This document shows, piece by piece, positions 2,510-59,314 of a DNA stretch of 64,000 nt. Position 1 is the stretch's first letter, and every line of letters begins with the position of its first letter. The notes under the pieces are model-generated. The model was given only the letters and a program-made list of their open reading frames with translations, did not search any database and was not told where the DNA came from. The stretch lies in assembly GCA_021296315.1 (NCBI GenBank), contig JAGWAO010000007.1, positions 13,737 through 77,736 on the forward strand, in the 5' to 3' direction. The stretch comes from Acidimicrobiia bacterium (GTDB lineage Bacteria; Actinomycetota; Acidimicrobiia; Acidimicrobiales; Aldehydirespiratoraceae). The position numbers and the translations under genes were made by a program.

Positions 2510-2919
2510 CGGCCTGGCTAATCGACAAGTCCGCTCTCGTACGACTGGCGTCGAGTCCCGACTCGGCAGAGTGGGCGTCGAGAATCAGCCGCGGGCTGGT
2601 CCGGATCTCAACGCTGACTCGACTGGAGGTCGGCTTCTCGGCGCGCTCGGCCCACGATCTCCGGCAGAGCCGTGTCGAGCCGCCGCTGAACGCTATGCCC
2701 GTCGAGTACATGACGCCCGCAATCGAGGACCGCGCCGTTGCCGTTCAACAGGCTCTGGCGGATGCGGGCCAGCATCGAGGGCCGTCGATACCAGACCTGC
2801 TGATCGCGGCGACCGCCGAGGCGGCGAGGCTGACCGTGCTGCATGTCGACAAGGACTTCGACCTCATTGCCGAAGTCACCGGGCAGCCCGTCGAGCGATT
2901 GGCGCTCGCGGGTGGCTGA
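2500..2919 (+). CDS. vapC: PIN-domain toxin VapC
   Basis: The translation shows [15 protein letters not shown] and LHVDKDFD acidic PIN residues. An alternative GTG at 2506 forms a GTGA overlap with the antitoxin stop. Confidence 0.8.
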
Positions 2920-2971
2920 GCGCCCGTCAGAATCCCCGGCGGTGCGGGTAAGAGTGGATACCGTGCTGAGG

Positions 2972-4489
2972 ATGGACGAAGTCGAGGTGGGGCACCGGTG
3001 GGCGCCGATTGCGGACCTAACAGACGACGACCGCGCCGTGGCCAGCGAGGAGTTGCCCGCGCTGGCTCGAACGTGGGCCCAAGTCCGCCAAACCCTCGAT
3101 CCTCAACAAGTGGATGAGTTCAACGAGCGCCTGAAGCGGGAGTGGGCGATCGAGACAGGGATCATCGAGCGGCTGTACAGCCTCGACCGGGGCACGACCG
3201 AGGTCCTCATCAAGCATGGAATCGACGCATCTCTCATCGCGAGCGACGCCACGGACCAGCCTCCGGAACTGGTCGCCGGGATCATCAGGGACCACGCCGA
3301 AGCCGTCGATTGGCTCTTCGACGCTGTAACCAGCGAGCGCCCTCTGTCCACCTCCTTCCTGAAGCATTTGCACCAGTTCATGACTCGCAAGCAGGTCTAT
3401 GCGACCGGTATCGACATGTTCGGGAGAAAGCACGAGATCGAGCTGAGACACGGGGAATTCAAGGTCCGCCCGAACAATCCCGTGCGCCCGGACGGCAAGC
3501 TTCATGAATACTGCCCTCCTGAGCACGTTGATGCAGAGATGGACCGGCTGATCGAGATGCACAACCACCACTCGGCGGCGGGTACGGCACCCGACGTCAG
3601 CGCGGCGTGGCTGCATCATCGCTTTGCGCAGATCCATCCCTTCCAGGACGGCAACGGCAGAATCGCTAGGGCCATCGCGTCGCTGGTGCTCATTGGTGCA
3701 GGTTGGTTCCCGCTAGTCGTTACCCGAGACGACCGCTCTAGGTACATCAGCGCACTCGAACAAGCAGACGATCGGGATCTGAGTCTACTCATACGCTTGG
3801 TGGCTGAACTACAGAGAAAGTGGTTCGTTCGCGCTGTCTCGATCGCTGAGGACGTACGGCGCGAGTCGCTCCACTTGGAGCAGATGCTCGATGTCATCGG
3901 CGATATGTTCGGTGCGGAGTCAGCTCCGGCTCAGTCGGAGTTGCACAAAGCCTTTGTGACGGCCGAGAAGGTGTGGTTCCAGTCCCGCAACCGCTTCGAT
4001 GAGTTGAAGGAGCAGTTGGAGCAGCGCCTCGGATTCTCCGACGAAAGAGGCGTGTGGTGCGACTTCGGAAGGGACGACGACGCACGACGGCGCACATGGA
4101 ATCGATATCAGGTAGTCGATACTGCCCGCAGTCTCGACTACTTCGCCAACACACGAGTGCTCCATGAATGGGTTCGCTTGGGAATCCAGACCGAGCACGG
4201 CCGTTCCGAGATACTGACGTCGTTCCATGGGATCGGAACGGAATTTCGGGGACTTGTCGGCGTGTCGATGTGCTTCTACCGGCGCCAACAACCCGAGGAC
4301 ACCGAGGACCACCCCGAGGGCACGCCGCAATTGACTATCCAGCAGCAGATCATCGAGCTGCAGCCTGTCTCGGAGGAGGTCTTCCAAATCAACTACGAGG
4401 AGCCCTTCGAGTCTGTAGAACGACGGTTCCAGGGATGGCTAGAACGCGCCCTGGTCCTAGCCCTCGACCAATGGCGGCGCGGCGAGTAG
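2972..4489 (+). CDS. Fic-family protein (AMPylase-type) with long N- and C-terminal extensions
   Basis: The canonical Fic motif HPFQDGNGRIAR is present. The start is set at ATG 2972 (MDEVEVG) because the upstream part of the 548-aa ORF overlaps vapC. The region is visibly more A/T-rich. Confidence 0.8.
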   Translation: MDEVEVGHRWAPIADLTDDDRAVASEELPALARTWAQVRQTLDPQQVDEFNERLKREWAIETGIIERLYSLDRGTTEVLIKHGIDASLIASDATDQPPELVAGIIRDHAEAVDWLFDAVTSERPLSTSFLKHLHQFMTRKQVYATGIDMFGRKHEIELRHGEFKVRPNNPVRPDGKLHEYCPPEHVDAEMDRLIEMHNHHSAAGTAPDVSAAWLHHRFAQIHPFQDGNGRIARAIASLVLIGAGWFPLVVTRDDRSRYISALEQADDRDLSLLIRLVAELQRKWFVRAVSIAEDVRRESLHLEQMLDVIGDMFGAESAPAQSELHKAFVTAEKVWFQSRNRFDELKEQLEQRLGFSDERGVWCDFGRDDDARRRTWNRYQVVDTARSLDYFANTRVLHEWVRLGIQTEHGRSEILTSFHGIGTEFRGLVGVSMCFYRRQQPEDTEDHPEGTPQLTIQQQIIELQPVSEEVFQINYEEPFESVERRFQGWLERALVLALDQWRRGE

Positions 4490-7400: not shown

Positions 7401-9343
7401 CCGTCGGGCAGGAACACACCGAACAGGCCCCGGTCGGGGATGGTTCCCGCGTTGGTGACCGCGAGGCGCTGAGATCCGGCCCGGCCCCGCAGCACGCCGT
7501 TGGCCCGGTCCCACACCACGCGGGGCCTCAACTCGGAGAACTCCTCGGCCGGATAGGTGCCCGACAGCAGCTCAAGCACGCTCTGCAGCACCTCGTCGGA
7601 CAGCTCGACGAAGCCGGCGCTGCGTCGCAGCACGGCCGCCATCCGCTCGACCGGCCAGTCGTCCATGGCGCACATGGCCACGATCTGCTGGGCGGCCACG
7701 TCTATGGGGTTGCGCAGGTAGCGGGTGTGCTCGACCTCGCCGGCGTGCATGCGCTCCACCACCGCGGCCGCCTCCAGCAGGTCGGCACGGTGCTTGGGGA
7801 AGATCCGGCCCCGGCTCGGCTCGCCCACCCGGTGCCCGGCCCGCCCGATGCGCTGCAGCCCGGAGGCCACCGACCCGGGTGAGGCCACCTGCACCACCAG
7901 GTCCACGGCACCCATGTCGATGCCGAGCTCGAGCGTCGAGGTGGCGACCAGGCCCTTCAACTCGCCTCTCTTGAGCTCGTCCTCGATGAGCAGACGGCGC
8001 TGCCGCGAGATCGACCCATGGTGGGCCTTGACCAGTTCGACACCCTCGGCCGCACCGATACCGGCCTGTTCATCACCCAGCGGGACCGGCGGCGGCGCAT
8101 CCAGAGGGCGCGCCGACGGGCTGGAGCCCGCTGTCTCGAAATGGGGTGTATCCCGCTCCTGTTCGCTGCGCTCACGGGCCGCTCGGGCCATGGCCTCGCT
8201 GGTCCGAGCCGGCTGCGCAGGGTAGGTCGGCGGACTCTCCGCTCGGCCTCTGAGCAGGGCCTCGATCGATTCGCCCACATGCTGCGGCCCGCCCGCCCCG
8301 ATGGATTTCGGGTTGGTGTTGTGTGGCAGGTCCACAGGACTCGCCCCGAGATACTGCGCCTCCTGATCCTGGGCCTCCAAGTGCAGTTCGTTGAGCCGGG
8401 CCGCGAGGCGCTCGGCCAGCCGGCGGGCGTTGGCGAAGATCAGCGTGGACCGGTGGGACTGGACCAGCTCCAGCAGGCGGGGATGGATGGCAGGCCAGAT
8501 GCTGCGCCGCAGCGGTCCGGCCGCGGCTCCGGCCGACGCCGGCGGCTCGACCGTCTCGCCCAGCGAGGCCATGTCGGCCACCGGGACCACCACCTCGACG
8601 TCGAGCTCTTTGCGGGCTGCGGCGTCCACCACGGTCACGGGGCGGGGAACCGCCGATCCTCCGGGCCCGGTGTCGAAGCCGCCCAGGAAGCGGGCGATCT
8701 CGTCGAGGGGTCGCTGGGTGGCGGACAGCGCGATGCGCTGCGGCGAGCGCTCGCACAGCTCCTCGAGGCGCTCCAGAGACACCATCAGATGGGTGCCCCG
8801 CTTGCTGGCGGCCACCGCATGGATCTCATCGACGATCACATGGCGCACCCCGGCGAGAGTCTCCCGGGCCCGGCTGGTCAGCATCAGGAACAGCGACTCG
8901 GGAGTAGTGATCAGGATGTGCGGAGGGTGTCGAACGAGCCGCCGGCGCTCATCGGCCGAGGTGTCGCCGGTGCGCACCCCCACCGTGGGCACATTCACTG
9001 CCGCGCCGAGCCGGTCGGCAGCCAACTGGATGCCGTGCAGCGGCGCCCTCAGGTTCTTCTCGACATCGACGGCCAGCGCCCGCAGGGGCGACACGTACAG
9101 CACCCGAGTGCCGGGGTCGCATGCGGCATGGTCGGCCGACATGAGCCGGTCGATGGCCCACAGGAACGCGGCCAGCGTCTTGCCCGTGCCGGTGGGTGCG
9201 CACACCAGGGTGTGATCCCCGGCCGCGATGGGCGGCCAGCCCTCGACCTGCGGCGCCGTCGGCGCTGCAAAAGCCGACGCGAACCAGGCCCGGGTCGGCT
9301 CGGAGAACGCAGCCAGCGGATCAGCAGACGGGTCAGCCACCAC
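4499..9343 (-). CDS. lhr: Lhr-type ATP-dependent DEXH helicase
   Basis: The protein is 1614 aa with motifs APTGTGKT, VIVDEIHAV, LSATQRP, KAHHGSISRQ, ATSTLELGIDMG and QRIGRAGH, plus the long Lhr-type C-terminal extension. It has a GTG start. Confidence 0.9.
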   Translation of the reverse strand: MVADPSADPLAAFSEPTRAWFASAFAAPTAPQVEGWPPIAAGDHTLVCAPTGTGKTLAAFLWAIDRLMSADHAACDPGTRVLYVSPLRALAVDVEKNLRAPLHGIQLAADRLGAAVNVPTVGVRTGDTSADERRRLVRHPPHILITTPESLFLMLTSRARETLAGVRHVIVDEIHAVAASKRGTHLMVSLERLEELCERSPQRIALSATQRPLDEIARFLGGFDTGPGGSAVPRPVTVVDAAARKELDVEVVVPVADMASLGETVEPPASAGAAAGPLRRSIWPAIHPRLLELVQSHRSTLIFANARRLAERLAARLNELHLEAQDQEAQYLGASPVDLPHNTNPKSIGAGGPQHVGESIEALLRGRAESPPTYPAQPARTSEAMARAARERSEQERDTPHFETAGSSPSARPLDAPPPVPLGDEQAGIGAAEGVELVKAHHGSISRQRRLLIEDELKRGELKGLVATSTLELGIDMGAVDLVVQVASPGSVASGLQRIGRAGHRVGEPSRGRIFPKHRADLLEAAAVVERMHAGEVEHTRYLRNPIDVAAQQIVAMCAMDDWPVERMAAVLRRSAGFVELSDEVLQSVLELLSGTYPAEEFSELRPRVVWDRANGVLRGRAGSQRLAVTNAGTIPDRGLFGVFLPDGTRVGELDEEMVYESRVGETFLLGATTWRIVEITFERVVVTPAPGELGKMPFWHGDGPGRPIELGRAVGSLVRELRAEGDVDAATARLRQRCGLDETAADNLLAYLGDQAAATGAVPDDRTVVVERFRDEIGDWRVCVLTPFGAQVHAPWGVALQARLGEAWGVDVDLMWGDDGIVMRLPEAIDELRVDDLMFDPDEVRDLVVGRLPETSMFASRFRECAARALLLPRRRPDQRTPLWQQRQRAADLLSVAAKYPSFPVLLETTRECLNDVFDLPALVELMADLRNRRVRVVAVDTAQASPFAQSLLFSWIAVYMYEGDAPLAERRAAALALDRDLLRDLLGAEELRELLDAGVIADIELELQRLVAGSQARDGDEAHDLLRVLGPLTLDELVARTAPAPGSDAERVAGWVRTLVEQRRALETRLAGRDVVADAADAARLRDGAGAALPVGLAASDTEPVDDPLGDLCVRYARTHGPFLARDVARWLGVGEQPVAARLASLVAEGRLLRGEFRPGGADREYCDAEVLRRIRRRCLAELRQEVEPVPPEALARFLPQWQGVGGRRRGVDALADVVAQVQGAPVAASVLEADVLAGRMAGYKPADLDQLCTSGEIVWVGAGALGATDGRVRLVFRDQAALLVPAAEPCDGAVHDALRDRLRDRGASFWPDLVAAAQAASLPYDTETVLAALWDLVWAGEVTNDSLTPLRARITGHRSVGPRRQPSRAGRTSPRAGRSRRGRLRLGGLNATGPPSAAGRWSLVEPLLSPKPAPTESALARAHQLLDRYGVVTRETALGEESEGGFAGVYPVLKALEERGEARRGYFVAGLGAAQFALPGAVDRLRGTRTPEPDAPPVVLAATDPAQPYGAALSWPDSRGRPARTAGAHVVLADGLPLVMLERGGRSLATFEGAESNDVWIEAIIGLVKDGRLRKVEIAKVDGQPVRETPWAARLETAGFTSAYKGMLYRT
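8151..8254. repeat. Copy B of the ~100-bp interspersed repeat family, in frame inside lhr
   Basis: The sequence tcccgctcctgttcgctgcgctcacgggccgctcgggccatggcctcgct...ctccgctcggcctctgag is translated in lhr as RGRAESPPTYPAQPARTSEAMARAARERSEQERD. Confidence 0.75.
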
Positions 9344-32887: not shown

Positions 32888-33678
32888 ACGAACCGTTCGT
32901 GGATCCGAACACCCCCAGCGACTCCGGTCGGTCCGAGCCCGTAATGGCGCCGCTCGTCGCCCCCGACACCGGCCCGGCCCGGGAGTGGGCCGAGGCCAGC
33001 CCGCCCCTCGTCACCGTCCATCCCGACGACCTGCCCGAGGGCGACAGCCACCTCAGCGTGACGCGCACCTTCTGTTTCGCCGACCTCTGCGGCTTCACCG
33101 GGTACACCCGTTCCCACGGGCCCCACGAGGCGGTGGCGATGCTCGGAGAGTTTCGCAGGGTCACCCGGAGCGTGGCCGCCAAACGAGGGGTGCGGGTGGC
33201 GAAATGGCTGGGCGACGGCGCCATGCTGGTGTCCACGAGCGCCGCGGCCGCGCTGTCCCTCGGCGCCCACCTCATCCACTATTTCGCCAGCAGGGGCGTG
33301 CAGATCCGGGTGGGCGCGGCCACCGGCCAGGCCCTGCTCTTCGAGGGCGACGACTACGTGGGCGAGCCCGTGAACCTGGCCGCCAAACTATGCGCCGCCG
33401 CTCCGCCGGGCGAGATGTACACCGTCACCGACCAGCTGGAGTTGCCCGACTGGGTGGCCTGCATCGGCGATGTCACGGTGCAGATCCGGGGCGTCGGGCC
33501 GGTGGAGGGCGTGCACCGGCTCCTGCCCCTCGGGCTCGCCGATGAGCGCGGGAGCGACGTGGACAGGCTCAACGACGAACTCGACCAGCTCAGCGACGAC
33601 TCGGCAGCGACCTCAACGAACTCAGCCAGGAGCTCGACGAGTTCGGGTCGGGTGGCTCGAGCCATCAGTGACGGCTGA
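32881..33678 (+). CDS. Class III adenylate/guanylate cyclase domain protein
   Basis: The translation shows FCFADLCGFTGYT, WLGDGAML and GEPVNLAAKL. GTG 32881 overlaps the hemY stop (GTGCTAG). Confidence 0.75.
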   Translation: MLDEPFVDPNTPSDSGRSEPVMAPLVAPDTGPAREWAEASPPLVTVHPDDLPEGDSHLSVTRTFCFADLCGFTGYTRSHGPHEAVAMLGEFRRVTRSVAAKRGVRVAKWLGDGAMLVSTSAAAALSLGAHLIHYFASRGVQIRVGAATGQALLFEGDDYVGEPVNLAAKLCAAAPPGEMYTVTDQLELPDWVACIGDVTVQIRGVGPVEGVHRLLPLGLADERGSDVDRLNDELDQLSDDSAATSTNSARSSTSSGRVARAISDG

Positions 33679-35229
33679 GTGACCCAACCCGCTCGGCCCC
33701 TTGGCCTGGGAAGGCCCTGGATCCGCTCCATCGTGGCCGGGCTGCTGCTGGCCGCCTCGCTGCCGCCCTGGGGCTTCTGGCCCCTGGCAATCGGTGGGAT
33801 GGCGCTCTGGGTCGAGCTGCTGACCGAGGGCGGCTACTGGCGCCGGGCGGGGCTCTCGGCGCTGGTGAGTGTCAGTTGGCTGGGTCCGGCGACGGTCTGG
33901 ATGGCGGACCTGACGCTGGTCGGCTGGCCGCTGGCGCTGATCGGATTCGCGGCGATGCACGCCGTGGCCGGCGCGCTCGTGCCGCCCGACCACCGGCGCT
34001 GGGCCGCCTTCCCGGCTGCGTTCGCGCTCGCCGAACTGCTGAGATGGACCTGGCCCTTCGGCGGGGTGCCGCTGGCAACGATGGCCATGGCGCAGGTGTC
34101 CGGCCCGCTCGGACCGGCGGCCCGGATCGGCGGCCCGCTGTTGCTGACCGCGCTCACCGCGGTGGGCGGGGTCACGGTGGCCGCCATCCTGGCCGCCCGC
34201 CTCCGGCCGGCTGCGGTGGGCGCAGCCTTGGTGGCCGCGGCCTGGGTCGCGGCCATCGTCGCTCCCGGCTCACAGCCCATCGATGTCGACGGCACACCCG
34301 ACGACGACGCCGGAATCACCGTCGCCGCGGTGCAGGGCGGTGGTCCCCAGAACACCAGAGCCGACGTGTGCGAGCAGCGGGCGGTGTTCGAGCGCCACCT
34401 CAACACCACGATCCAGCAGGTGTCCACTCCGGTGGATCTGGTGGTGTGGCCCGAGGACGTGGTCCATCCCAGCCCGGACACGGCCATCACGCCGGCGCGC
34501 TGCGACCAGCCGCTGCTCACCGACAGCGAGGCCCGGGCCGCGCTGTCGGACCTGGCCCGCGACCTCGACACGGTGCTCATCGTCGGCTTCTTCGAACGCA
34601 CCGCCGACCGCGAGGCCAATCGCAACTACGCGGCCGCCTACAACTCCTCAGGAGTGCCGGTCGACACCTACGACAAGGTCCAGCTCGTGCCCTTCGGCGA
34701 GTACGTGCCGCTGCGCTCCAGCGCCGAGCGCTTCAGCGACGAGCTGCCGCCGCGGGACGTCAGGCCGGGACCCGCCGACGAGCCCGCCGTCCTCGACACG
34801 CCGCTGGGACCGCTAGGCGTGGCCATTTCCTGGGAGATCTTCTTCGACCACCGGGCCCGCAGCGCCGTCGGCGGCGGCGACGGCCGGGTGCTTCTAAACC
34901 CCACCAACGGCTCCAGCTACTGGCTGACGGTGGTCCAGACCCAGCAGATCGCGTCCAGCCGCCTGAGGGCCATCGAGACCGATCGATGGGTGGTCCAGGC
35001 CGCGCCCACCGGGTTCTCCGCGGTGATCACGCCGGAGGGCGACGTGATCGAGCGAACCGGGATCTCCGAGAGCAGAGTGATCCAGACGACGGTTGAGCTG
35101 CGCCAGGGCGATACGCTCGCGGTCCGGTTGGGGGCATGGCCTGTGGCCGTCGCCGCAGTGCTGACGCTCTCGCTGGCGCTCGGCCTCGGGCGTGTGTTGA
35201 CGAGATTCAGGCCAGGGAGAAAGCTCTAG
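33679..35229 (+). CDS. lnt: Apolipoprotein N-acyltransferase homolog (Lnt), with Ser at the catalytic Cys position
   Basis: A multi-TM N-terminus is followed by a C-N hydrolase domain: VVWPEDVV (Glu), YDKVQLVPFGEYVP (Lys) and VAISWEIFF, where the nitrilase-superfamily C-W/Y-E motif reads S-W-E (codon tcc 34828-34830). Confidence 0.8.
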   Translation: MTQPARPLGLGRPWIRSIVAGLLLAASLPPWGFWPLAIGGMALWVELLTEGGYWRRAGLSALVSVSWLGPATVWMADLTLVGWPLALIGFAAMHAVAGALVPPDHRRWAAFPAAFALAELLRWTWPFGGVPLATMAMAQVSGPLGPAARIGGPLLLTALTAVGGVTVAAILAARLRPAAVGAALVAAAWVAAIVAPGSQPIDVDGTPDDDAGITVAAVQGGGPQNTRADVCEQRAVFERHLNTTIQQVSTPVDLVVWPEDVVHPSPDTAITPARCDQPLLTDSEARAALSDLARDLDTVLIVGFFERTADREANRNYAAAYNSSGVPVDTYDKVQLVPFGEYVPLRSSAERFSDELPPRDVRPGPADEPAVLDTPLGPLGVAISWEIFFDHRARSAVGGGDGRVLLNPTNGSSYWLTVVQTQQIASSRLRAIETDRWVVQAAPTGFSAVITPEGDVIERTGISESRVIQTTVELRQGDTLAVRLGAWPVAVAAVLTLSLALGLGRVLTRFRPGRKL

Positions 35230-38446: not shown

Positions 38447-38607
38447 GGGTAACTGGACCGCCGCCGAGGAATTGGGAATTGGCAGCCCACAGCGCCCAAA
38501 CAGGACTCGACCGCCGCCAATTCCGCAAGGCGCGGCCCGTCGGGGGCTCGGAGCGGCGCCGTAGTCGCCGAAGGGGGTGTCCCGCTCGGCCTCTAGGGTC
38601 TAGGCCG

Positions 38608-48266: not shown

Positions 48267-51200
48267 GTGCTCGATTCCGGCTGGCCTGAAGACGGCTGGC
48301 GTGCGCTCGGGAGACCGGATCGCGGTGGGGAACCTTGGTGGACGCCCGAACAAGCCCGGCTCATTGGTTGGCTCAACAGATACGCGCCTTCGGTCGAGCC
48401 CTTCTATAGAGGGGCTCTAGTGCTGGCAGCGTTCGACAGCTTGCCTGGTCGGGTGCACTTCATCGCTCACGCGATCCGCGAGATCGGGAACCGTCTTCCG
48501 GTTGCGCTCGGTAACAAAGTCAAGAAGAAGACGGCCGGTTACGAGGACCACGCCAAGGCGATCCGCGATAGGTGGCTCGACGAGGGCCTCCCGCCGGATG
48601 GAAGGCTGCGGTTTCTGCAGGAATCCGCGCCTTCTGCGTCGGGTCCCCTACGCCAAGAGGTGTCCGTTGGATTATTGGCGTCGGTGGGGAAGCTGATAGC
48701 GGAGCACCGCAAGGCCGAGGCGAACAGAGAGGCCCGCGAGCGAGCCAAGTTTGGTGCCTTGAGCGACTTGGGCTCCAACCCGTCATACGTCATCAAGAAC
48801 TGGGGCAGGTGGGCTCGCGAGGCGGTCGAGTTCGTGCACGCGAGGGACAAACTGCTGCCAGCGGAGAAAGACGCCGAGTGGGTGGCGAAGTTCCTTGCGT
48901 TCGAGCAAGAGCTGATGGCCATCGCGAGACCCTCCTACGAGAATCTGGATGCACTCGACGGACTGCTAGCTGAGGCGAACAGGGCGATGAACGACTGGAC
49001 TGCACCTTCTGGCTCTGAGCTCGCACGTGTTGTAGCGCTGGCGACTCGCTTTGAGAACCGGACGTACTTCTTTGACCGCCTCGAGAACCCCGAATGGGTT
49101 TCTGCGCTGGCGGACGAGGGCGTGTTCGATGATCCCCCCGATCGGGAGCAGGCTGACGAGGCCGGGTATTGGCGGTTCCCGCCGTGGCCCGAGGGCCGCT
49201 ACCTCGCCCGTATGGCACCTGCGGCCCCGGACGCGGTCGCAGCGGTCCTGGAGAAGTCGCGACCGTCGGCCAACCCGAGGGTGACGGCCATCCTGCTTGA
49301 GTGCCTGCAAGCCCTTCCCCCCGAACAGTTCCGGAGACTCGCGCCAAAGACCCTCGAATGGATCACCGACCGTGCAGCCGCAGAGTTCATGGACCACTTC
49401 GACGATCAAGCGGCGTCGGCCGTTGCTCGCCTCGTGCGCGACGGCAAGATCGAACAGGGACTGATCGCCGCGAAGGCACTCCTGAAGCTCGAGCGCCGCT
49501 CTACGGCATCCGACAGCTCCCAGGCCCACGAGATTCCCGCGCTGCCCGAGCCCGTTGGGCGTCTCAGGGATTGGGAGTACGACCGGACGATTGCGACGAT
49601 CTTGCCGGATCTGGTCGACTCGGCAGGCCTAGATGGCCTGAGGCTGTTCTCGTCGCTGCTCTCAGTCGCCATCGAGTACTCCAGAAGCGAGGGCGAGCTG
49701 CCCGACTCCGATGGCCACTCCTGCGCCTGGAGACCGGCTATAGAAGACCACCCTCAGAATATGGATCGCGATGTCCGCTGTGTGCTCGTGACAGCAGTGC
49801 GCGACGCTGCCGTTCGCCTCGCCGTAGTCTCCGATGAGAACCTCCAGAATGTCGTGCAGATGCTCGAATCGGCAACCGCTCTGCATCGCCGTATTGCGCT
49901 GCACGTCCTCGCCGTTGTCCCGGGCGGCGCGGAACTCGCGGCCGAGCGGATCACCAACAGGACCATCCTCAACGATCACCGCCTCAAGCACGAGTACGCC
50001 GAGTTGCTTCGATCGCGATGGGTCGAAGCACCCCCCGAAGTGCAGAGGACATTCCTGGACTCGGTACTCGCCGGCCCCGACCTCGACGACTACCAGCCTG
50101 AGGACGAGACCGCCGCCGCCGAGTGCTGGATGCGCGACTGGCTGAGCATTGTCGCCGACCATCTCTCAGGCGACGACGCGGACAGGTACCGCGAACTCGT
50201 ATCGAAACACGGCGAGGCCGACCACCCGGACTTCGTGTCATGGACCGAGACTTGGAGCGGACCCACGACTCCCCGCACTACCGAACAACTGAAAGAACTC
50301 TCACCAGGCGAGGTCATCGAATATCTGGATGACTGGCGTCCCGACGCTGGAGCCGGACGGGGCTTCAGCCCCTCCATGGAAGGACTCGGTCTTACCTTCA
50401 GCAAAGCTGTATCTGAACGCGCCGCTGACTTCGCCGCTGCGGCGAACCGGATCGAGACCCTGGACCCGACCTATGTCCGCCACTTCTTGAGCGGACTCGA
50501 AGCAGCCGTCAAGGCGGGCACCGCGATCCCATGGGACCAACCGATGCACCTGATGGCATCGGTGCTGGAGCACCCCTTCGACCACCCCGAAGAATCGCCG
50601 GTCTTTGACCGTGACTCAGGGTGGCGCTGGACCCGCGGCCGGGTCGCGTCGTTGATCGAACAGGGAGTCGCCGACCGCGACAACGGGATCCCGTTCGAAC
50701 TGCGCCAAGCGGTCTGGGATGTCCTGGAGCCCCTGACGCGCGATCCGCATCCATCGCCAGGCGACGAGGCCAGCGACAGCATGGATCCGTTGACGCGGTC
50801 GATCAACACGAACCGCGGCAAGGCGATGCACGCCGTCATGGCATATGCCCTGTGGTGCGCACGCGAACTCGACGCGCAAGGCGAGGACATGTCCGCGGGG
50901 TTCGACTTGATGCCTGAGGTGCGAGCCGTGCTCGAGGAACGTCTGGACCCCGATACTGATCCGTCCCTTGCGGTGCGGGCCGTCTACGGCAAGTGGCTTC
51001 CCTGGCAAATCCTGATCGACGCGCGATGGGTATCTGCCAACATCTCGCGGATACTCCCGCCCACCCCGAACCAAGAGAGCCTCCGTGATGCCGCCTGGGG
51101 CACCTACATCTGCTGGTGCCCACCCTTCGACACGGTCTATGACGTACTGGGTGACGAGTACGAGGCTGCGGTGGAACGAATCCCCACCGGCGCCACCGTC

Positions 51201-51827
51201 GGATTCGCCAACGACGAACGAGTCGACGCCAAGCTGGGCGAGCACCTCGTCACGTTCTATTGGCGCGGCGTCCTACAACGCTCCCTGCTCGAACGCTGGT
51301 TCGAGCTCGCCGACGACGAAATCGCCGGAGACGTCATGGAGTTCTTGGGACAGGCACTCCGCGACACGCCAGAAGACATCGAGCCCCCAGTAGGGGAACG
51401 AATTCAAGGCCTCTGGGACTACCGGATCAACGTCATAACCAGCGAGCCCGAATCTCACGACAACGAAGCCAAAGCGTTCGCACTCACCTTCACCTCCGCC
51501 AAGTTCGACGACGAATGGTCTCTCGCAGGCCTCAACGCCACGTTGCGACCCGGTGACCGTAGATGGTTCGGCCGCGACGTCATAGGGCGCCTCGCCGAAA
51601 TGGCAACCACCAACCCCGTAGAGGCCACCCGACTGACTCTCAAGATGCTGGAGGATGCTGCCAACGACTGGGACCACCACAGCTGGCGTGACCCGGTTCG
51701 GGACGTCCTAACCGCGACCAGCGATGCCGCAGACGAAGAAACCCGCAACCACCGCGCCTCCATCATCGACCACTACATCAAACACGGAGACCTCGACTTC
51801 CGGGCGCTTACCCCTACGCAGCCGTAG
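48267..51827 (+). CDS. Large orphan protein (1186 aa), predicted all-alpha/HEAT-like repeat body with a distinct ~230-aa N-terminal module
   Basis: This long uninterrupted ORF lies in the A/T-richer island and has a GTG start. I see no recognisable catalytic or NTPase motif. The sequence is helix-rich with recurring W/F-x-x-L-type repeats. Confidence 0.7.
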   Translation: MLDSGWPEDGWRALGRPDRGGEPWWTPEQARLIGWLNRYAPSVEPFYRGALVLAAFDSLPGRVHFIAHAIREIGNRLPVALGNKVKKKTAGYEDHAKAIRDRWLDEGLPPDGRLRFLQESAPSASGPLRQEVSVGLLASVGKLIAEHRKAEANREARERAKFGALSDLGSNPSYVIKNWGRWAREAVEFVHARDKLLPAEKDAEWVAKFLAFEQELMAIARPSYENLDALDGLLAEANRAMNDWTAPSGSELARVVALATRFENRTYFFDRLENPEWVSALADEGVFDDPPDREQADEAGYWRFPPWPEGRYLARMAPAAPDAVAAVLEKSRPSANPRVTAILLECLQALPPEQFRRLAPKTLEWITDRAAAEFMDHFDDQAASAVARLVRDGKIEQGLIAAKALLKLERRSTASDSSQAHEIPALPEPVGRLRDWEYDRTIATILPDLVDSAGLDGLRLFSSLLSVAIEYSRSEGELPDSDGHSCAWRPAIEDHPQNMDRDVRCVLVTAVRDAAVRLAVVSDENLQNVVQMLESATALHRRIALHVLAVVPGGAELAAERITNRTILNDHRLKHEYAELLRSRWVEAPPEVQRTFLDSVLAGPDLDDYQPEDETAAAECWMRDWLSIVADHLSGDDADRYRELVSKHGEADHPDFVSWTETWSGPTTPRTTEQLKELSPGEVIEYLDDWRPDAGAGRGFSPSMEGLGLTFSKAVSERAADFAAAANRIETLDPTYVRHFLSGLEAAVKAGTAIPWDQPMHLMASVLEHPFDHPEESPVFDRDSGWRWTRGRVASLIEQGVADRDNGIPFELRQAVWDVLEPLTRDPHPSPGDEASDSMDPLTRSINTNRGKAMHAVMAYALWCARELDAQGEDMSAGFDLMPEVRAVLEERLDPDTDPSLAVRAVYGKWLPWQILIDARWVSANISRILPPTPNQESLRDAAWGTYICWCPPFDTVYDVLGDEYEAAVERIPTGATVGFANDERVDAKLGEHLVTFYWRGVLQRSLLERWFELADDEIAGDVMEFLGQALRDTPEDIEPPVGERIQGLWDYRINVITSEPESHDNEAKAFALTFTSAKFDDEWSLAGLNATLRPGDRRWFGRDVIGRLAEMATTNPVEATRLTLKMLEDAANDWDHHSWRDPVRDVLTATSDAADEETRNHRASIIDHYIKHGDLDFRALTPTQP

Positions 51828-54176: not shown

Positions 54177-55292
54177 TTGGGACTGGCACCGGACAGCGCG
54201 AGCCCGGAGGCCCGCCGCGAGTTCGTGGTCATGGGCGCTCTGGCCTGCGGCGCGGCCGTCGCCATCAAGGCACCCGAGATCTTCGGCCTGCACCTCGAGC
54301 ACGACGGCGAGTTCTACGCTCGCAACGTCAGCCTGCTGGTGCTGCCCTTCCTGGCCGGCTACTTCGCCTGGAAGCGCCGGCTCGGCCCGCCGACGCTGGC
54401 CCTGCTGGCGGCCGCGTTCGCCGCGCCCGCCGCCGTCGTCAACGCCTACCCGTTCGACGGAGGGCGAGACACTTCCGACACCGAGGTGCTGGCCGCGCTG
54501 CACCTGCCCATCCTGTTATGGCTCGCCGTCGGGCTGGCCCACGCCTCCGGCGACTGGCGGTCCCACGACAAGCGCATGGACTTCGTGCGCTTCACCGGTG
54601 AGTGGGTCATCTACTTCGGACTCGTCGCGCTCGGCGGCGGCGTGCTGGCCGGGTCCACGGCCGGGATCTTCTCGGCCATCGGGATCGACGCCAACGAGTT
54701 CATCGGCCTGTGGCTGGTGCCATGCGGAGCGGCCGGCGCGGTGGTCGTGGCCGCCTGGCTAGCCGAGTCGAGACAGGGCGTGCTGGAGAGGATCGCGCCC
54801 GTGCTCACCAGGCTGTTCACGCCGCTGTTCACCGCCATGCTGGCCGCCTTCCTCGTAGCGGTGGCCCTGACCGGCAGGGGCATCGACGTCGGCCGGGGCG
54901 TGCTGATCTTCTTCGACGTGCTGCTCGCTCTGGTGCTGGCGCTAGTCATCTACTCGGTGGCCGCCCGGGACCGGCACGCTCCCCGCGGCCTGTTCGACCT
55001 GCTGCTACTGCTACTGGTGGTAGCTGCCCTGCTGGTCGACCTGCTGGTGCTGGGCGCCATCGTGGGACGCCTGTCCGACTTCGGCGCCACCCCCAACCGG
55101 ATCGCGGCTCTGGGCGAGAACCTGGTGCTGATGGGGAACCTGGCCTGGTCGGCGTGGCTCTACCTCGGCTTCTGGCGGGGCCGCCGCGGCTCTGCCGCCA
55201 TCGAGCGCTGGCAGACCGCCTACGCACCGGTCTATGCGATCTGGCTGTCGGCGGTCGTGGTGGCCTTCCCGCCCCTGTTCGGCTTCGCCTGA
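54177..55292 (+). CDS. Polytopic membrane protein (DUF4153-like); coding-like N-terminal extension 53913-54176 lacks a start codon
   Basis: The body is multi-TM. The upstream in-frame 88 codons encode a helical domain (..GLAPDEAFLIATKRVGTLDEAL..LWQRL) but contain no ATG, GTG or TTG. Confidence 0.65.
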   Translation: MGLAPDSASPEARREFVVMGALACGAAVAIKAPEIFGLHLEHDGEFYARNVSLLVLPFLAGYFAWKRRLGPPTLALLAAAFAAPAAVVNAYPFDGGRDTSDTEVLAALHLPILLWLAVGLAHASGDWRSHDKRMDFVRFTGEWVIYFGLVALGGGVLAGSTAGIFSAIGIDANEFIGLWLVPCGAAGAVVVAAWLAESRQGVLERIAPVLTRLFTPLFTAMLAAFLVAVALTGRGIDVGRGVLIFFDVLLALVLALVIYSVAARDRHAPRGLFDLLLLLLVVAALLVDLLVLGAIVGRLSDFGATPNRIAALGENLVLMGNLAWSAWLYLGFWRGRRGSAAIERWQTAYAPVYAIWLSAVVVAFPPLFGFA

Positions 55293-55342
55293 GCCTCACC
55301 GGCGCGAACGGGTGAGAACCCGTCGTGTCGCAGCGGTGCCAC

Positions 55343-55443
55343 TCCCGCTCCTGTTCGCTGCGCTCACCGGCCGCTCGGGCCACGGCCTCGCTCAGCTCGC
55401 GCCCGAGACCCTCTCAACCGATGCGAGTCCGCTCGGGCCTCAG
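55343..55443. repeat. Copy C of the ~100-bp interspersed repeat family
   Basis: The sequence is tcccgctcctgttcgctgcgctcaccggccgctcgggccacggcctcgct...gtccgctcgggcctcag. Its right end overlaps the glcF stop codon. Confidence 0.8.
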
Positions 55444-56675
55444 GAGCGGGAGGCGGAGAGGGCCTGGTCGACCAGCTCCAGGGGGTGGCGCACCTCCAAG
55501 CCGGCCGCGGCCAGATGCAGCGAGCAGCCGGGGTTGGCGCTGGCCACGACGGACGCGCCCGAGCGGACCACCGCCGCGGTCTTGCGCTCGCGGATGGCCC
55601 TGGACAGCTCGGGCTCCATCACCGAGTAGGCGCCGCCGGCCCCGCAGCACAACCCGTCGTCATCGAGGGCGACCACTTCGGCGACGAACGGGAGGAGCAC
55701 AGCCGGTACCGCGTGGTGGGCCCGCTGCACATGGCGCAGGTGGCAGGGATCCTGCACGGCCACGGTCAACTTCAGCGGAGCGACCGGTCGCCGGGATTGC
55801 AGCTCATCGAGGCGTTCGGCCAGCCATTCGTGGACGTCGTACACCCGGTCTGAGAAGGCCCGGGCCTCGTCGGTTCCCAGCAGATGCCCGTAGTCCTTGA
55901 GCGAGGCGCCGCATCCGGCCGCGTCCACCAGTATGGGACGGTCGTCGCCCGACAGGCCGGCCATCACCTGGCGGGCCATGGCCTTCGTCTCGGACTCCAG
56001 CCCGGCGTGGATGTGCAGAGCCCCGCAGCACGGCGCAACCCCGCCCGTGGGCTCCACCCCGGCGCCAGCCGCCTCCAGCACCCGCTGCACGGCCAGGTGC
56101 ACGTCGCGCTGCCAGGCGTCCATCACGCAGCCGGTGAAGAGCCAGACATCATCGCCCGAGGTGCGCAGTCGAGGGCGCCGCAGCGGCATCCTCGCGGGCA
56201 GGCCGAGGCGCTTAGTGGGCACCAGACGGAGCCGTATGGCCAGCGCCAGCAAGGTGGATCCGGCCAGCAGCAGGCGGCGGTGGCGCAGCATCCGCAGGGC
56301 CAGGCGCTGCCAGCGGGGGGTGATCCGGCCCGCATCGGCCAGTGCGGCCCGGGTGCCCTCCATCAGATGCCCGAACGGTACCGCGCTCGGGCAGGCGGTC
56401 TCGCAGCCCCGGCACTGCACGCACGTCTCCATCGACCGGATCAGGTCTTCTGTCACCGGCGCGCCCTCGTTCTGCACCGCCCGCATCAGCGCGATCCGTC
56501 CCCGCGGCGACTCCGTGTCGCTGCCGGTAATCACGAAGGTGGGGCAGTGCGGCAGGCACAGCCCGCAGGAAACACAGGCGACCAGCTCGTCGTCGTCCAA
56601 TCCGAGGTGCATCAGGGCGTCCCGCGATCGAAATTGATGACGAAACCGCCCCCAGAGGCCCACAATCCACACCAA
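55440..56675 (-). CDS. glcF: Glycolate oxidase iron-sulfur subunit (GlcF-like, CCG-domain Fe-S oxidoreductase)
   Basis: The translation shows CVSCGLCLPHCPT and CVQCRGCETACPS ferredoxin-type clusters, then two Cys-rich CCG-like regions. The alternative start is ATG 56612. Confidence 0.8.
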   Translation of the reverse strand: MVWIVGLWGRFRHQFRSRDALMHLGLDDDELVACVSCGLCLPHCPTFVITGSDTESPRGRIALMRAVQNEGAPVTEDLIRSMETCVQCRGCETACPSAVPFGHLMEGTRAALADAGRITPRWQRLALRMLRHRRLLLAGSTLLALAIRLRLVPTKRLGLPARMPLRRPRLRTSGDDVWLFTGCVMDAWQRDVHLAVQRVLEAAGAGVEPTGGVAPCCGALHIHAGLESETKAMARQVMAGLSGDDRPILVDAAGCGASLKDYGHLLGTDEARAFSDRVYDVHEWLAERLDELQSRRPVAPLKLTVAVQDPCHLRHVQRAHHAVPAVLLPFVAEVVALDDDGLCCGAGGAYSVMEPELSRAIRERKTAAVVRSGASVVASANPGCSLHLAAAGLEVRHPLELVDQALSASRS

Positions 56676-56703
56676 CTTCGTGTCAGCGGCGGTGGGCGGC
56701 CCA

Positions 56704-57621
56704 TCAGGGCCTCCGCAGCGGGTCGCGGCCCGGGTTGAGGCGACCGGTGGGGTCGAAACGCTCCTTGAAGCGGCGATTCAACTCGGCCACGCCCGGCTCG
56801 ACGGGGCGGGACGGCTGGGGCTCGGAGGCATGCACCACCCCCACGCCGATCTCGGCGACGAACCGGCCCGCCGTGCCGTTCCGGACATCGAAGGCGGTGG
56901 CCTCCGCGGGCGTGCACGTCCACCGGTGGAGCGGCAGCTCGGGCGGGCCGTCCACCTCCTCGCAGGCGCCCAGCCGGCCCAGGTCCTCGTCCACGTCGAC
57001 TTCGTAGCCGCTCAGCAGGGTCCACACGTCGGTGCCGTCCCACAGCACCGACGCGGCAGTGTGGCACGACCGCACCGCGCCCGGATCGGTGCCGGCCAGC
57101 CGTACCCAACGCTCGCTCTTCCCCACCGGGAAAGTTCGCACGAGCACCTCGCCCACCAAGCCGAGCGTGCCCAACGACCCGACCAGCAACCGGCACAGGT
57201 CGAAGCCGCTCACGTTCTTGACGGTGCCTGCGCCCGCGCTGGCGATCCGACCGTCGGCGCACACGTAGCGGGCTTGCAGCAGGGCGTCGCGCACCGGCCC
57301 CCGCCCCAGGCGCGCAATGCTCGACTCGCCCGCCATCAGTGCCCCGCCCACCGTGCCGCCGGCACGCTCGGGCAGGGCGGTGCGCTGGCCGGCGGCCGCC
57401 AGCTCCTCGTGCAGCGCAACAACCGGCGTGCCGGCCCGCACCCGCACCGTCATCTCGGCCGGTTCGAACGCCACGATGCCCGCCGGGGCCCGAACCTCAC
57501 GGGTGTCCGGCGCCGCCTCCCCGCCCAAGCTCCAGCGGGTCCCGCCGCCCCGCACGCACACCGGCCCGTCCGGACCGACCTCGGCCGCGAACACGGTGAG
57601 AGCCTCGTCGAAATCAGTCAT
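56704..57621 (-). CDS. glcE: Glycolate oxidase FAD-binding subunit (GlcE-like)
   Basis: The gene shows an FAD_binding_4 pattern and sits between glcD and glcF. The start is set at ATG 57621 (MTDFDEAL). Confidence 0.75.
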   Translation of the reverse strand: MTDFDEALTVFAAEVGPDGPVCVRGGGTRWSLGGEAAPDTREVRAPAGIVAFEPAEMTVRVRAGTPVVALHEELAAAGQRTALPERAGGTVGGALMAGESSIARLGRGPVRDALLQARYVCADGRIASAGAGTVKNVSGFDLCRLLVGSLGTLGLVGEVLVRTFPVGKSERWVRLAGTDPGAVRSCHTAASVLWDGTDVWTLLSGYEVDVDEDLGRLGACEEVDGPPELPLHRWTCTPAEATAFDVRNGTAGRFVAEIGVGVVHASEPQPSRPVEPGVAELNRRFKERFDPTGRLNPGRDPLRRP

Positions 57622-57684
57622 CCCGCTCGGCCTCTCAGAAGACGAGCGGGCAGGTGATGCCGCCTCGCGCTGCGACGCTGTCAT

Positions 57685-57785
57685 TCCCGCTCTTGTTCGC
57701 TGCGCTCACGGGCCGCTCGGGCCACGGCCTCGCTAAGCGTCTCATCAGACCCATCAGGAATCTCAGTCACCCCGCTCGGCCTCTG
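57685..57785. repeat. Copy D of the ~100-bp interspersed repeat family
   Basis: The sequence is tcccgctcttgttcgctgcgctcacgggccgctcgggccacggcctcgct...ccccgctcggcctctg. It lies in the glcD-glcE spacer and ends 3 nt from the glcD stop. Confidence 0.8.
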
Positions 57786-57787
57786 GG

Positions 57788-59314
57788 TTAGCCCCAGACG
57801 CCGGCGGCGTCGGCGGCCCTTAGGGCGCCGATGTCCGAGCAACTGTGGGCGCTGGGCAGAACCTTGCCCGGGTTCATGCGGCAGTGCGGATCGAACGAGG
57901 CCCGCAGCCGGCTCTGCTGATCGAGATCCACTGCGCTGAACATGCGGTTCATGTGCTCGCGCTTCTCCACCCCGATCCCGTGCTCGCCGGTGAGCGCACC
58001 ACCCATGTCCAGCGACATCTCGATGATCTCGCGGCCCGCGGCATGCACCCTCTCGTCGGTGCCCGGCACCCGCGAGTCGTAGGCCAGGATGGGGTGGAGG
58101 TTGCCGTCGCCGGCGTGGAAGACGTTGAGCACGATCAGGTCGTAGCGGTCGACGATCTCGTAGATCCGCTCCAACACCTCCACCAGCCGGGTACGGGGCA
58201 CCACCGTGTCGTGCAGGTAATAGTCGGGCATCACGTTGGCCACGGCCCCGAACGCGCTCTTGCGCCCCTTCCACAGCCGGGCCCGCTCGTCTTCGTCGGC
58301 GGCGGTGCGAACGCTGATGGCCTGGTTGCGCCGGGCGATGCCGGCCACCTTCTCGCTGGCGATGGCCACTCCGCCCGCGGGTCCGTCCACCTCGACCAGC
58401 AGTACCGCGGCAGCGTCCTTGGGGTAGCCGGCCTGGGCGAAGTCCTCGACGGCGGTGACGCAGCGTTGATCCATCATCTCGATGGCGGCCGGCACGATCC
58501 CGGCCGCGATGATGGCGCTGACGGTGGCCGCCGCGTCCGACACGTCGTCGAAGCAAAGCAGCATGGTGCGCACCGCAGGGGGGTTGCGGGTGAGGCGCAC
58601 GGCCACTGCGGTGGCGATGCCGCACATGCCCTCGGAGCCGACGAACGCTCCTCTCAGGTCGTATCCGGCCGGCTCGGCGGTCAGGTCGCCCAGCGTGACG
58701 ACCGACCCGTCGGACAGCACGACCTCCACCGCCACCACATGGGCGCTGGTCACGCCGTAGGCCAGGCAGTGAGGGCCACCGGAGTTGTTGGCCACGTTGC
58801 CGCCGATGGTGCAGGCCGCCTGGCTGGACGGATCGGGCGCGTAGTGAACCCCGTGCGGAGCCAGCGCCCGGCTGAGGTCGAGGTTGACCATGCCGGGCTG
58901 CACCCAGGCCACGCCGTTGTCGAGGTCGACCCCGAGCAGCTTGTCCATCCGGGTCATCGCCAGCACCACCGGCTGGCCCAGCGGCGCCGCGCCGCCGGCT
59001 AGGCCGGTCCCGGCCCCCCTGGGTGACACCGCCCGCCCGTGGCGGGCCGCGACCTGCACGCAAGCCACGACGTCGGAGGTGGAGCCGGGATAGCACACCG
59101 GTCCGGCGTTGCCCTCCCGGTAGATGGAGGCGTCACGGGAAGCCAGGTAGCGGGAAGCGGTGTCGGCCCGCACCCGGTCGGACCCGATGGCCTCGACCAG
59201 GTCGGCGACGAGTGCGGCGTCACCGGCACCGGCGGGCGGGCTGGCGGCCGCTCGGTCGCCTCGACGGCGAGATCCCAGCACCCGGCGGGTGGCGGCAACG
59301 AGTGTCCTGGACAC
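57788..59314 (-). CDS. glcD: FAD-linked oxidase (GlcD-like glycolate/D-lactate dehydrogenase subunit)
   Basis: The translation shows PRGAGTGLAGGA, HAGDGNLHP and GEHGIG. Confidence 0.85.
   Translation of the reverse strand: MSRTLVAATRRVLGSRRRGDRAAASPPAGAGDAALVADLVEAIGSDRVRADTASRYLASRDASIYREGNAGPVCYPGSTSDVVACVQVAARHGRAVSPRGAGTGLAGGAAPLGQPVVLAMTRMDKLLGVDLDNGVAWVQPGMVNLDLSRALAPHGVHYAPDPSSQAACTIGGNVANNSGGPHCLAYGVTSAHVVAVEVVLSDGSVVTLGDLTAEPAGYDLRGAFVGSEGMCGIATAVAVRLTRNPPAVRTMLLCFDDVSDAAATVSAIIAAGIVPAAIEMMDQRCVTAVEDFAQAGYPKDAAAVLLVEVDGPAGGVAIASEKVAGIARRNQAISVRTAADEDERARLWKGRKSAFGAVANVMPDYYLHDTVVPRTRLVEVLERIYEIVDRYDLIVLNVFHAGDGNLHPILAYDSRVPGTDERVHAAGREIIEMSLDMGGALTGEHGIGVEKREHMNRMFSAVDLDQQSRLRASFDPHCRMNPGKVLPSAHSCSDIGALRAADAAGVWG

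Follow-up and report, generated by a model that had tools for sequence, protein, structure and literature searches.

What is the repeat that separates glcD from glcE in this Acidimicrobiia genome, and why do its copies sit beside stop codons? We analysed the surrounding 64,000 nucleotides (hereafter the window; GC = 69.5%). A sequence-only reading had described an unrecognised interspersed family of ~100 bp with four copies, labelled A to D. Two options were offered: a MITE/RPE-like element or a post-transcriptional signal. Briefly, the repeat is a real, MITE-like family for which we found no description in the literature.

All four copies were recovered where they had first been placed, far above chance expectation. 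The 50-nt left module matched at 8151, 55343 and 57685, with one mismatch each, where no match was expected. Using the module with nhmmer added copy A at 894-928 (E = 2e-8) and gave no other window match at E < 1. The end motif CCGCTCGGCCTCT, allowing at most one mismatch, was present at seven sites against 0.31 expected: positions 921, 8239, 33689, 38582, 57623 and 57772 on the plus strand and 29101 on the minus strand. Both sites previously listed as solo end motifs were among the seven. Their positions stand, but the sites are deleted or truncated family members (38544-38594 and 57622-57636).

For the element, "sense" means the minus strand of the window, on which each of the copies below is read. 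Copy D (57637-57785) is a full, long-class copy of 149 nt in the glcD-glcE spacer. It begins 2-4 nt after the glcD stop codon (TAA, 57788-57790). In sense order there is a 5' inverted repeat AGAGGCCGAGCGGGGTGA, a variable core, the module (57685-57735), a tail and a 3' inverted repeat TCACCTGCCCGCTCGTCTTCT. The module of copy D is the invariant 51-nt sequence AGCGAGGCCGTGGCCCGAGCGGCCCGTGAGCGCAGCGAACAAGAGCGGGAA and equates to the left module described earlier. Directly before the glcE ATG (57619-57621) is a solo 5'-end motif, GAGAGGCCGAGCGGG (57622-57636), which forms an 8-bp stem with the 3' inverted repeat of copy D. The annotated start of glcE is ATG 57621 (305 aa, 100% identical to P0121, which is annotated in an Acidimicrobiia MAG) and not ATG 57684.

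Copy C (55293-55441) is also full and long-class. It fills the whole gap between two convergent stops, the glcF TGA (55440-55442) and the TGA (55290-55292) of a plus-strand ORF. Copy A (870-933) is internally deleted: GAGCGG motifs 1 and 2 are fused, and the tail is short. The deletion had been correctly called; it lies between the first and second GAGCGG motifs. This copy falls exactly between convergent stops (DegT-like TAG, 932-934; FtsX-like TAG, 869-871) and has TA on both flanks. Stops overlap the 5' ends of copies A and C, and the location of A, C and D behind stop codons is borne out. Copy B (about 8099-8251) is the one in-frame genic copy, as reported. The whole element lies within the ORF of a 1614-aa Lhr helicase, in the linker between the DEAD and Helicase_C domains, and adds ~51 aa (GRAESPPTYPAQPARTSEAMARAARERSEQERDTPHFETAGSSPSARPLD).

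Two further members are derivatives. Copy E (38544-38594) has the 5' end joined to GAGCGGGA-CACCCCCTTCG, a sequence found in tails of the GAGACACCCCC subfamily. Being upstream of a plus-strand aldehyde dehydrogenase gene, copy E is antisense to its neighbours. The segment at 33644-33701 (AGGGGCCGAGCGGGTTGGGTCAC...ACCCGACCCG) is probably a module-less hairpin derivative and is the least certain family member. Among neighbouring genes, Pfam identified a DegT-family aminotransferase and, for the glcD/E/F-like genes, an FAD-linked oxidase, an FAD-binding protein and a CCG-domain iron-sulfur protein. Exact-protein look-ups of the window GlcD and DegT for strain variants returned no match.

The element is a repeat, as claimed, but it is longer than ~100 bp. 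Full copies in the window are ~149 nt, with the extra ~50 nt extending leftward on the plus strand from the earlier boundaries. With 135-140 copies lined up, conservation runs ~50 nt past GAGCGGGA in the mRNA sense, up to the 3' inverted repeat. Read in sense, there are five parts. The 5' end is GAGGCCGAGCGG(A/G)TAGGCGAG, with a longer form AGAGGCCGAGCGG(A/G)TAGGCGAG. A variable arm, the core, follows. The third part is a near-invariant 51-nt module with two further GAGCGG motifs, and the fourth is a variable tail. The 3' end is CTC(A/G)CCTATCCGCG(CACG)CTCT, also seen as CTC(A/G)CCTATCCGCG....CTC. Full copies occur in three discrete sizes (113, 137 and 148 nt), the short class coming mostly from Poriferisodalis records. 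Full copies stay below the ~300 bp usual for MITEs, carry no transposase gene and have incidental ORFs only.

End tables and folds identify the termini as imperfect inverted repeats: AG-GCCGAG-CGGATAGG compared with AG-CGTGCG-CGGATAGG in reverse complement. Hence, the ends make a long closing stem that was invisible within the first boundaries. The statement that the element lacks an obvious hairpin does not hold, and arose because those boundaries were truncated. Across 24 aligned 137-nt copies, 85.9% of cells pair in four tested helices, two of which are the terminal stem. Pairing falls to 36-47% with the partner slid by 1-3 columns. Both-sided changes were found at nine pairs, compared with 5.8 in shuffles.

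Derivatives of the element include deleted, hairpin-only (module-less) and tandem forms. The three direct GAGCGG motifs behave as recombination points. Motif 1 is joined to motif 2 in copy A, and to motif 3 at 38544-38594 and 57622-57636. Mini-hairpins that have the 5' motif and no module were found at three other loci (L036, L091 and L111) and at 33644-33701 of the window. Sub-units of the element also form tandem arrays, with periods of 44 nt (up to six copies), 71 nt (three copies) and, for an array of 5' ends, 34 nt (three copies). These were observed at L106:4938-5200, L057:5823-5960, L112, L115, L114:5967-6180 (minus strand) and L089:738-840. Separately, a sequence resembling the 5' motif, GGGGCCGAGCGGAGAGG, occurs at L006:2372-2420, where it separates a TAG stop from an ATG. 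The sequence after this ATG, MAKGKKHVEATKSFDR, looks like ribosomal protein L1. With one mismatch, this motif may be a chance match.

The family extends well beyond the window. One genome per species was searched for exact matches to a 25-mer of the conserved module, CCGAGCGGCCNGTGAGCGCAGCGAA. At least 116 genome blocks in at least ~45 assemblies carry it, and all are Acidimicrobiales among the matches listed. Carriers among those matches include Ca. Aldehydirespirator and Ca. Poriferisodalis, which are two different families. Many carrier MAGs are apparently sponge-derived, judging from record names only. Viral contigs gave no match to the 25-mer. The repeat is an interspersed family and not a local duplication. 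It also remains unrecognised: it has no Rfam match, and literature on the host genera and on MITEs in sponge Acidimicrobiia yielded no description of the element.

Distance to stop codons had been put forward as a check, and the adjacency generalises. With genes called by a crude GC3-based heuristic, 45 copies have a same-strand gene that ends close by on the upstream side; its stop overlaps or touches the 5' end of the element in 15 of these copies and is within 5 nt in 20. Orientation does not generalise. The same heuristic, applied to 140 copies, placed 21 sense and 9 antisense in co-directional gene pairs, with 17 in convergent and 18 in divergent contexts. Together with the antisense copy E, this leaves the claim of a fixed orientation relative to genes unsupported. 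The composition of potential targets offers a plausible reason for the parking at stops. Of the non-genic CTNAG sites in the loci studied, 15% overlap a stop codon; for CTAG the figure is 31%. Hence, a TNA/CTNAG target in 70% GC DNA could account for the position of the copies.

Flanking sequences suggest past or present mobility. We compared the 3-mers before GAGG and after ...CTC in 51 full copies. The two were identical in 11 copies, against 3.4 +/- 1.65 in shuffles, and none of 2000 shuffles reached 11. TNA fits 10 of the 11 repeats, and C-TNA-G is the usual context. In the eight copies with T-N-A-G at both ends, N was the same in seven and complementary in none. Hence, the flanking repeat is a direct one and does not belong to the inverted ends. 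A 3-bp direct repeat and a preference for 5'-TNA-3' are reported for the IS1031 group of the IS5 family (PMC12016507). An intact duplication is kept in only about a fifth of full copies, and the window copies are without clean duplications, except for the TA at copy A. Longer flanking direct repeats (14 nt for L075, ~21 nt for copy D) are not explained by a 3-bp stagger.

Empty sites in relatives support the same interpretation. Precisely the block contributed by copy B is missing from the closest Lhr orthologues, P0001 (86% identity) and P0022 (84%). Their DNA reads ...CTGATTCAG|GCTCCG and ...CTGCTGAAG|GCGCCG, and the occupied site in the window reads ...CTGCTCAG[element]GCGCCG. A third orthologue (L120) has a degenerate 137-nt-class copy in the same linker and in another reading frame. 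The glcD-glcE spacer was compared with four relatives of the glc operon whose GlcE proteins are 88-94% identical. It measures 18 nt in L121, 4 in L122, 16 in L123, 152 in L124 and 166 in the window. Another genic insertion, in L115, has duplicated modules and splits a Hydantoinase_B domain between profile positions ~110 and 111. In-frame genic copies are rare, at ~2-3 of ~140. Inverted ends, the 3-bp duplication, empty sites in relatives and the in-frame insertions in Lhr and Hydantoinase_B all agree with the MITE/RPE-like option of the sequence-only reading.

We conclude that the element is probably non-autonomous, MITE-like mobile DNA specific to a clade of Acidimicrobiales. Its mover would be a trans-acting transposase, putatively a DDE enzyme of the IS5/IS1031 type, making TNA duplications. 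TNA and CTNAG would be rare inside genes and enriched at stop codons in 70% GC DNA. Insertion at a stop codon would duplicate the stop, leaving the upstream gene intact, and selection would purge most genic insertions. Together, target bias and selection would leave copies behind stops, sometimes filling the gap between two convergent stops. Rare in-frame insertions would survive in tolerant protein loops. The internal direct GAGCGG repeats would drive deletions, as in copies A and E, and tandem expansions.

Among known systems, the element most resembles MITEs of the IS5 family (IS1031 group), for which Tourist/PIF-Harbinger is the eukaryotic analogue. The likeness covers a non-coding length of ~110-150 bp, many dispersed copies, insertion polymorphism and deletion derivatives. 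It also covers terminal inverted repeats starting GA/GAG and the 3-bp TNA duplication (PMC12016507). There are differences. The arms of our element show compensatory changes and some flanking repeats are much longer than 3 bp. Furthermore, 0.98 Mb of loci plus the window yielded no cognate IS, and no autonomous element or transposase whose ends match. Pairs of inverted end motifs 0.2-3 kb apart enclose ordinary host genes only and no parent IS. Scanning ten window ORFs, each low in GC3 or adjoining an element, revealed no transposase domain.

Other mobile repeats share some of these features. Rickettsia palindromic elements (RPEs) are ~100-150 bp palindromes found between genes and in frame within conserved protein genes, in tolerant loops. 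Our element is alike in size, palindromic form and in-frame insertion (the Lhr linker and Hydantoinase_B). It differs in phylum, has no apparent sequence relationship, has few genic copies and has a detectable target duplication. With the listed scan matches confined to Acidimicrobiales, we consider it an analogue of RPEs and not a member. Neisseria Correia elements (CREE/NEMIS) are ~100-155 bp MITEs with inverted ends, internally deleted variants and a TA duplication, and are co-transcribed with genes. Size, inverted ends, deleted size variants and, putatively, co-transcription are common to both, but the duplication is TA in Correia and TNA here. Correia elements also carry an IHF site, a promoter and RNase III features.

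One property fits ordinary MITEs poorly. Their ends are normally conserved and their interior drifts, whereas conservation here peaks in the interior module. When copy D is compared with the L124 copy that occupies this site, the module is identical at 51 of 51 positions, with the core 59% and the tail 64% identical. The flanking genes are 88-93% identical, and 79% at third codon positions. By arm sequence, however, copy D resembles the L124 copy no more than it resembles copies from other loci and genomes. Hence, the module identity is not readable as purifying selection in situ. Similarly, L078 and L109 have flanks that are 96% identical and unrelated arms at the same site. Copies that share a site may therefore not be orthologues, and may have arisen instead by re-insertion or recombinational replacement. 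The contrast of module and arms may arise because mobilisation requires the module in cis, because copies exchange sequence or because the host has a use for the module. It is conceivable, though unlikely, that the 51-nt module is a functional platform kept by selection in at least two Acidimicrobiales families. The repeat would then be a "conserved core plus free hairpin arms" that has some function at the 3' ends of genes, and not a decaying MITE. Such a platform could bind a dedicated protein, or the host or the mobilising enzyme could need it as an RNA or single-stranded DNA motif.

The same contrast bears on a different kind of mobility. A REP/REPIN-like or otherwise hairpin-recognised repeat could move as single-stranded DNA by an HUH enzyme (RAYT or IS200/IS605-type), or recombination could spread it. 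A protein would then recognise the module, with pairing the sole demand on the arms. REP/BIME/REPIN and ERIC sequences are extragenic palindromes that lie just downstream of stops and inside operons, with compensating stems, and in these respects they are like our element. An invariant internal module with self-complementary, compensating arms would fit, as would the module-less mini-hairpins sharing the 5' motif (L036, L091, L111 and 33644-33701). So would an extragenic, high-copy distribution, the solo motifs at the otherwise empty L121 and L123 sites and the failure to find a DDE parent in the DNA searched. What counts against this account is the significant 3-bp TNA duplication, since REP and IS200/IS605 make none. 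The element is also much longer than a REP (a 20-40-nt palindrome) and has neither GT(A/G)G nor any conserved 5' tetranucleotide of the GTAG type. In addition, RAYT genes, which REPs flank, are known chiefly from proteobacteria. We regard movement of this type as rather improbable.

A role in RNA is slightly harder to reconcile with the data. The element could be a cis-acting module placed behind stops, acting as a signal for mRNA 3' ends, stability or translation coupling. Stop adjacency in 15-20 of 45 copies agrees with this, as do the mild sense bias in co-directional contexts (21 against 9) and a module common to two bacterial families. Copy D also has a 29-codon ORF, the TGA of which overlaps an ATG in frame with glcE. 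E. coli REP elements near stop codons are reported to affect translation. Against this, every orientation occurs, including antisense and in divergent promoter regions, and close relatives lack the element at the glcD-glcE junction. The module pairs with different partners in different size classes, and the 44-nt tandem arrays break any reading frame. Folding, which had been proposed as a check, was mostly unexceptional. The five full or deleted window copies fold no better than dinucleotide shuffles (z of -0.9 to +0.2), and only the module-less hairpin at 33640-33703 stands out among window copies (z = -3.7). RNAalifold gave no convincing common fold past invariant local hairpins. Rfam gave no match at gathering score across the window, and a permissive search returned only chance-level snoRNA (E = 1.8-5.7). 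No sigma-70-like promoter consensus was found, and intrinsic terminator-like sites, in which a GC-rich hairpin precedes a U-tract, numbered zero in 55150-57900. We conclude that the post-transcriptional option of the sequence-only reading has little in its favour and is doubtful.

The remaining reading, a MIRU-like coding mini-repeat in which small ORFs are translationally coupled to flanking genes and the peptide ...SEAVARAARERSEQERE is selected, is largely refuted and very improbable. In its favour, copies B, C and D each have an open frame, the small ORF in copy D finishes with ATGA and some genic copies are in frame. However, what is conserved is the nucleotide sequence: more than 100 copies show no synonymous variation. 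Upstream of the module, copy C is interrupted by an in-frame TGA, genic frames differ (L120 and the window; the two modules of L115), the tandem period of 44 nt is not divisible by 3 and orientation is mixed. Mycobacterial MIRUs are intergenic operon repeats with tandem copy variation, and their small ORFs overlap the stop and start codons of neighbours. Our element shares the actinobacterial operon setting, the tandem variation and, in copy D, a small ORF. MIRUs have no dyad symmetry and the same orientation as genes; our element has inverted ends, lies in mixed orientations and conserves no frame.

Four narrower candidates were rejected. A known RNA family is ruled out by the absence of an Rfam match. 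A small protein or RiPP-like product ending in the same peptide conflicts with the nucleotide-level conservation, the upstream in-frame stop of copy C and the differing frames of genic copies; one reading frame of the element always carries TGA. A hammerhead-like motif in copy D, CUGAUGAG, is not conserved in the family. An integron attC site does not match the ends, which are GAGGCCGAGCGG...CTC and not R''/R' RYYYAAC...GTTRRRY, and the flanking genes (glcDEF, Lhr) are housekeeping, where attC sites belong to cassette arrays beside an integrase gene.

The glc operon has a second, unrelated repeat. A 92-nt unit (56613-56704, minus strand) lies exactly between the glcE stop and the glcF ATG, and is flanked on both sides by CC(C/G)TGATG. 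It contains a 30-codon ORF with an ATG that overlaps the glcE TGA and a TGA that overlaps the glcF ATG. There is one unit in the window and in L122 (about 2524-2614), two in tandem in L124 (about 3931-4113) and none in L121 or L123. No further copy was found in the window or the loci. This is a VNTR architecture of the MIRU type, and the unit fits MIRU much better than the main element does. The glcF start is most likely ATG 56612, giving 390 aa as in the four relatives; the upstream TTG at 56675 listed by the ORF finder is unlikely.

Other observations concern the neighbourhood. Synteny with L121-L124 breaks at copy C (55290-55445). After glcF, the relatives have a co-directional vWA/YfbK_C gene, and the window has a convergent ORF (54177-55292, plus strand) that has no match in Pfam. 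L025, another carrier of elements, is orthologous to the flank of that ORF. This break suggests an element-associated rearrangement. A solo motif, GAG(AG)GCCG(G/A)(G/A)CGGG, lies directly before the glcE start in L121 (about 2983-3000) and L123 (about 2985-3000), neither of which has copy D. The corresponding motif in the window is at 57622-57636, and L122 is without it. Candidate explanations are a footprint, a native site that resembles the element and draws insertions, or a ribosome-binding region. Elsewhere in the window, two plus-strand ORFs have clearly lower third-position GC (~0.75) than their neighbours (2843-4489 and 48267-51827). One encodes a Fic/DOC-domain protein and the other a protein of 1186 aa with no Pfam match. 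Both ORFs may have been horizontally acquired.

Our analysis supplies a name and an anatomy for a high-copy repeat in Acidimicrobiales MAGs, many of them apparently sponge-derived. For annotation, the element causes spurious small ORFs and N-terminal extensions, and it splits Pfam domains in Lhr and Hydantoinase_B. It probably also contributes to contig breaks and rearrangements. The presence or absence of copies could serve as a strain-level marker in uncultured carriers. An A/T-containing TNA target would be a simple account of repeats at stop codons in high-GC genomes, and the invariant centre beside fast-changing arms is a testable puzzle.
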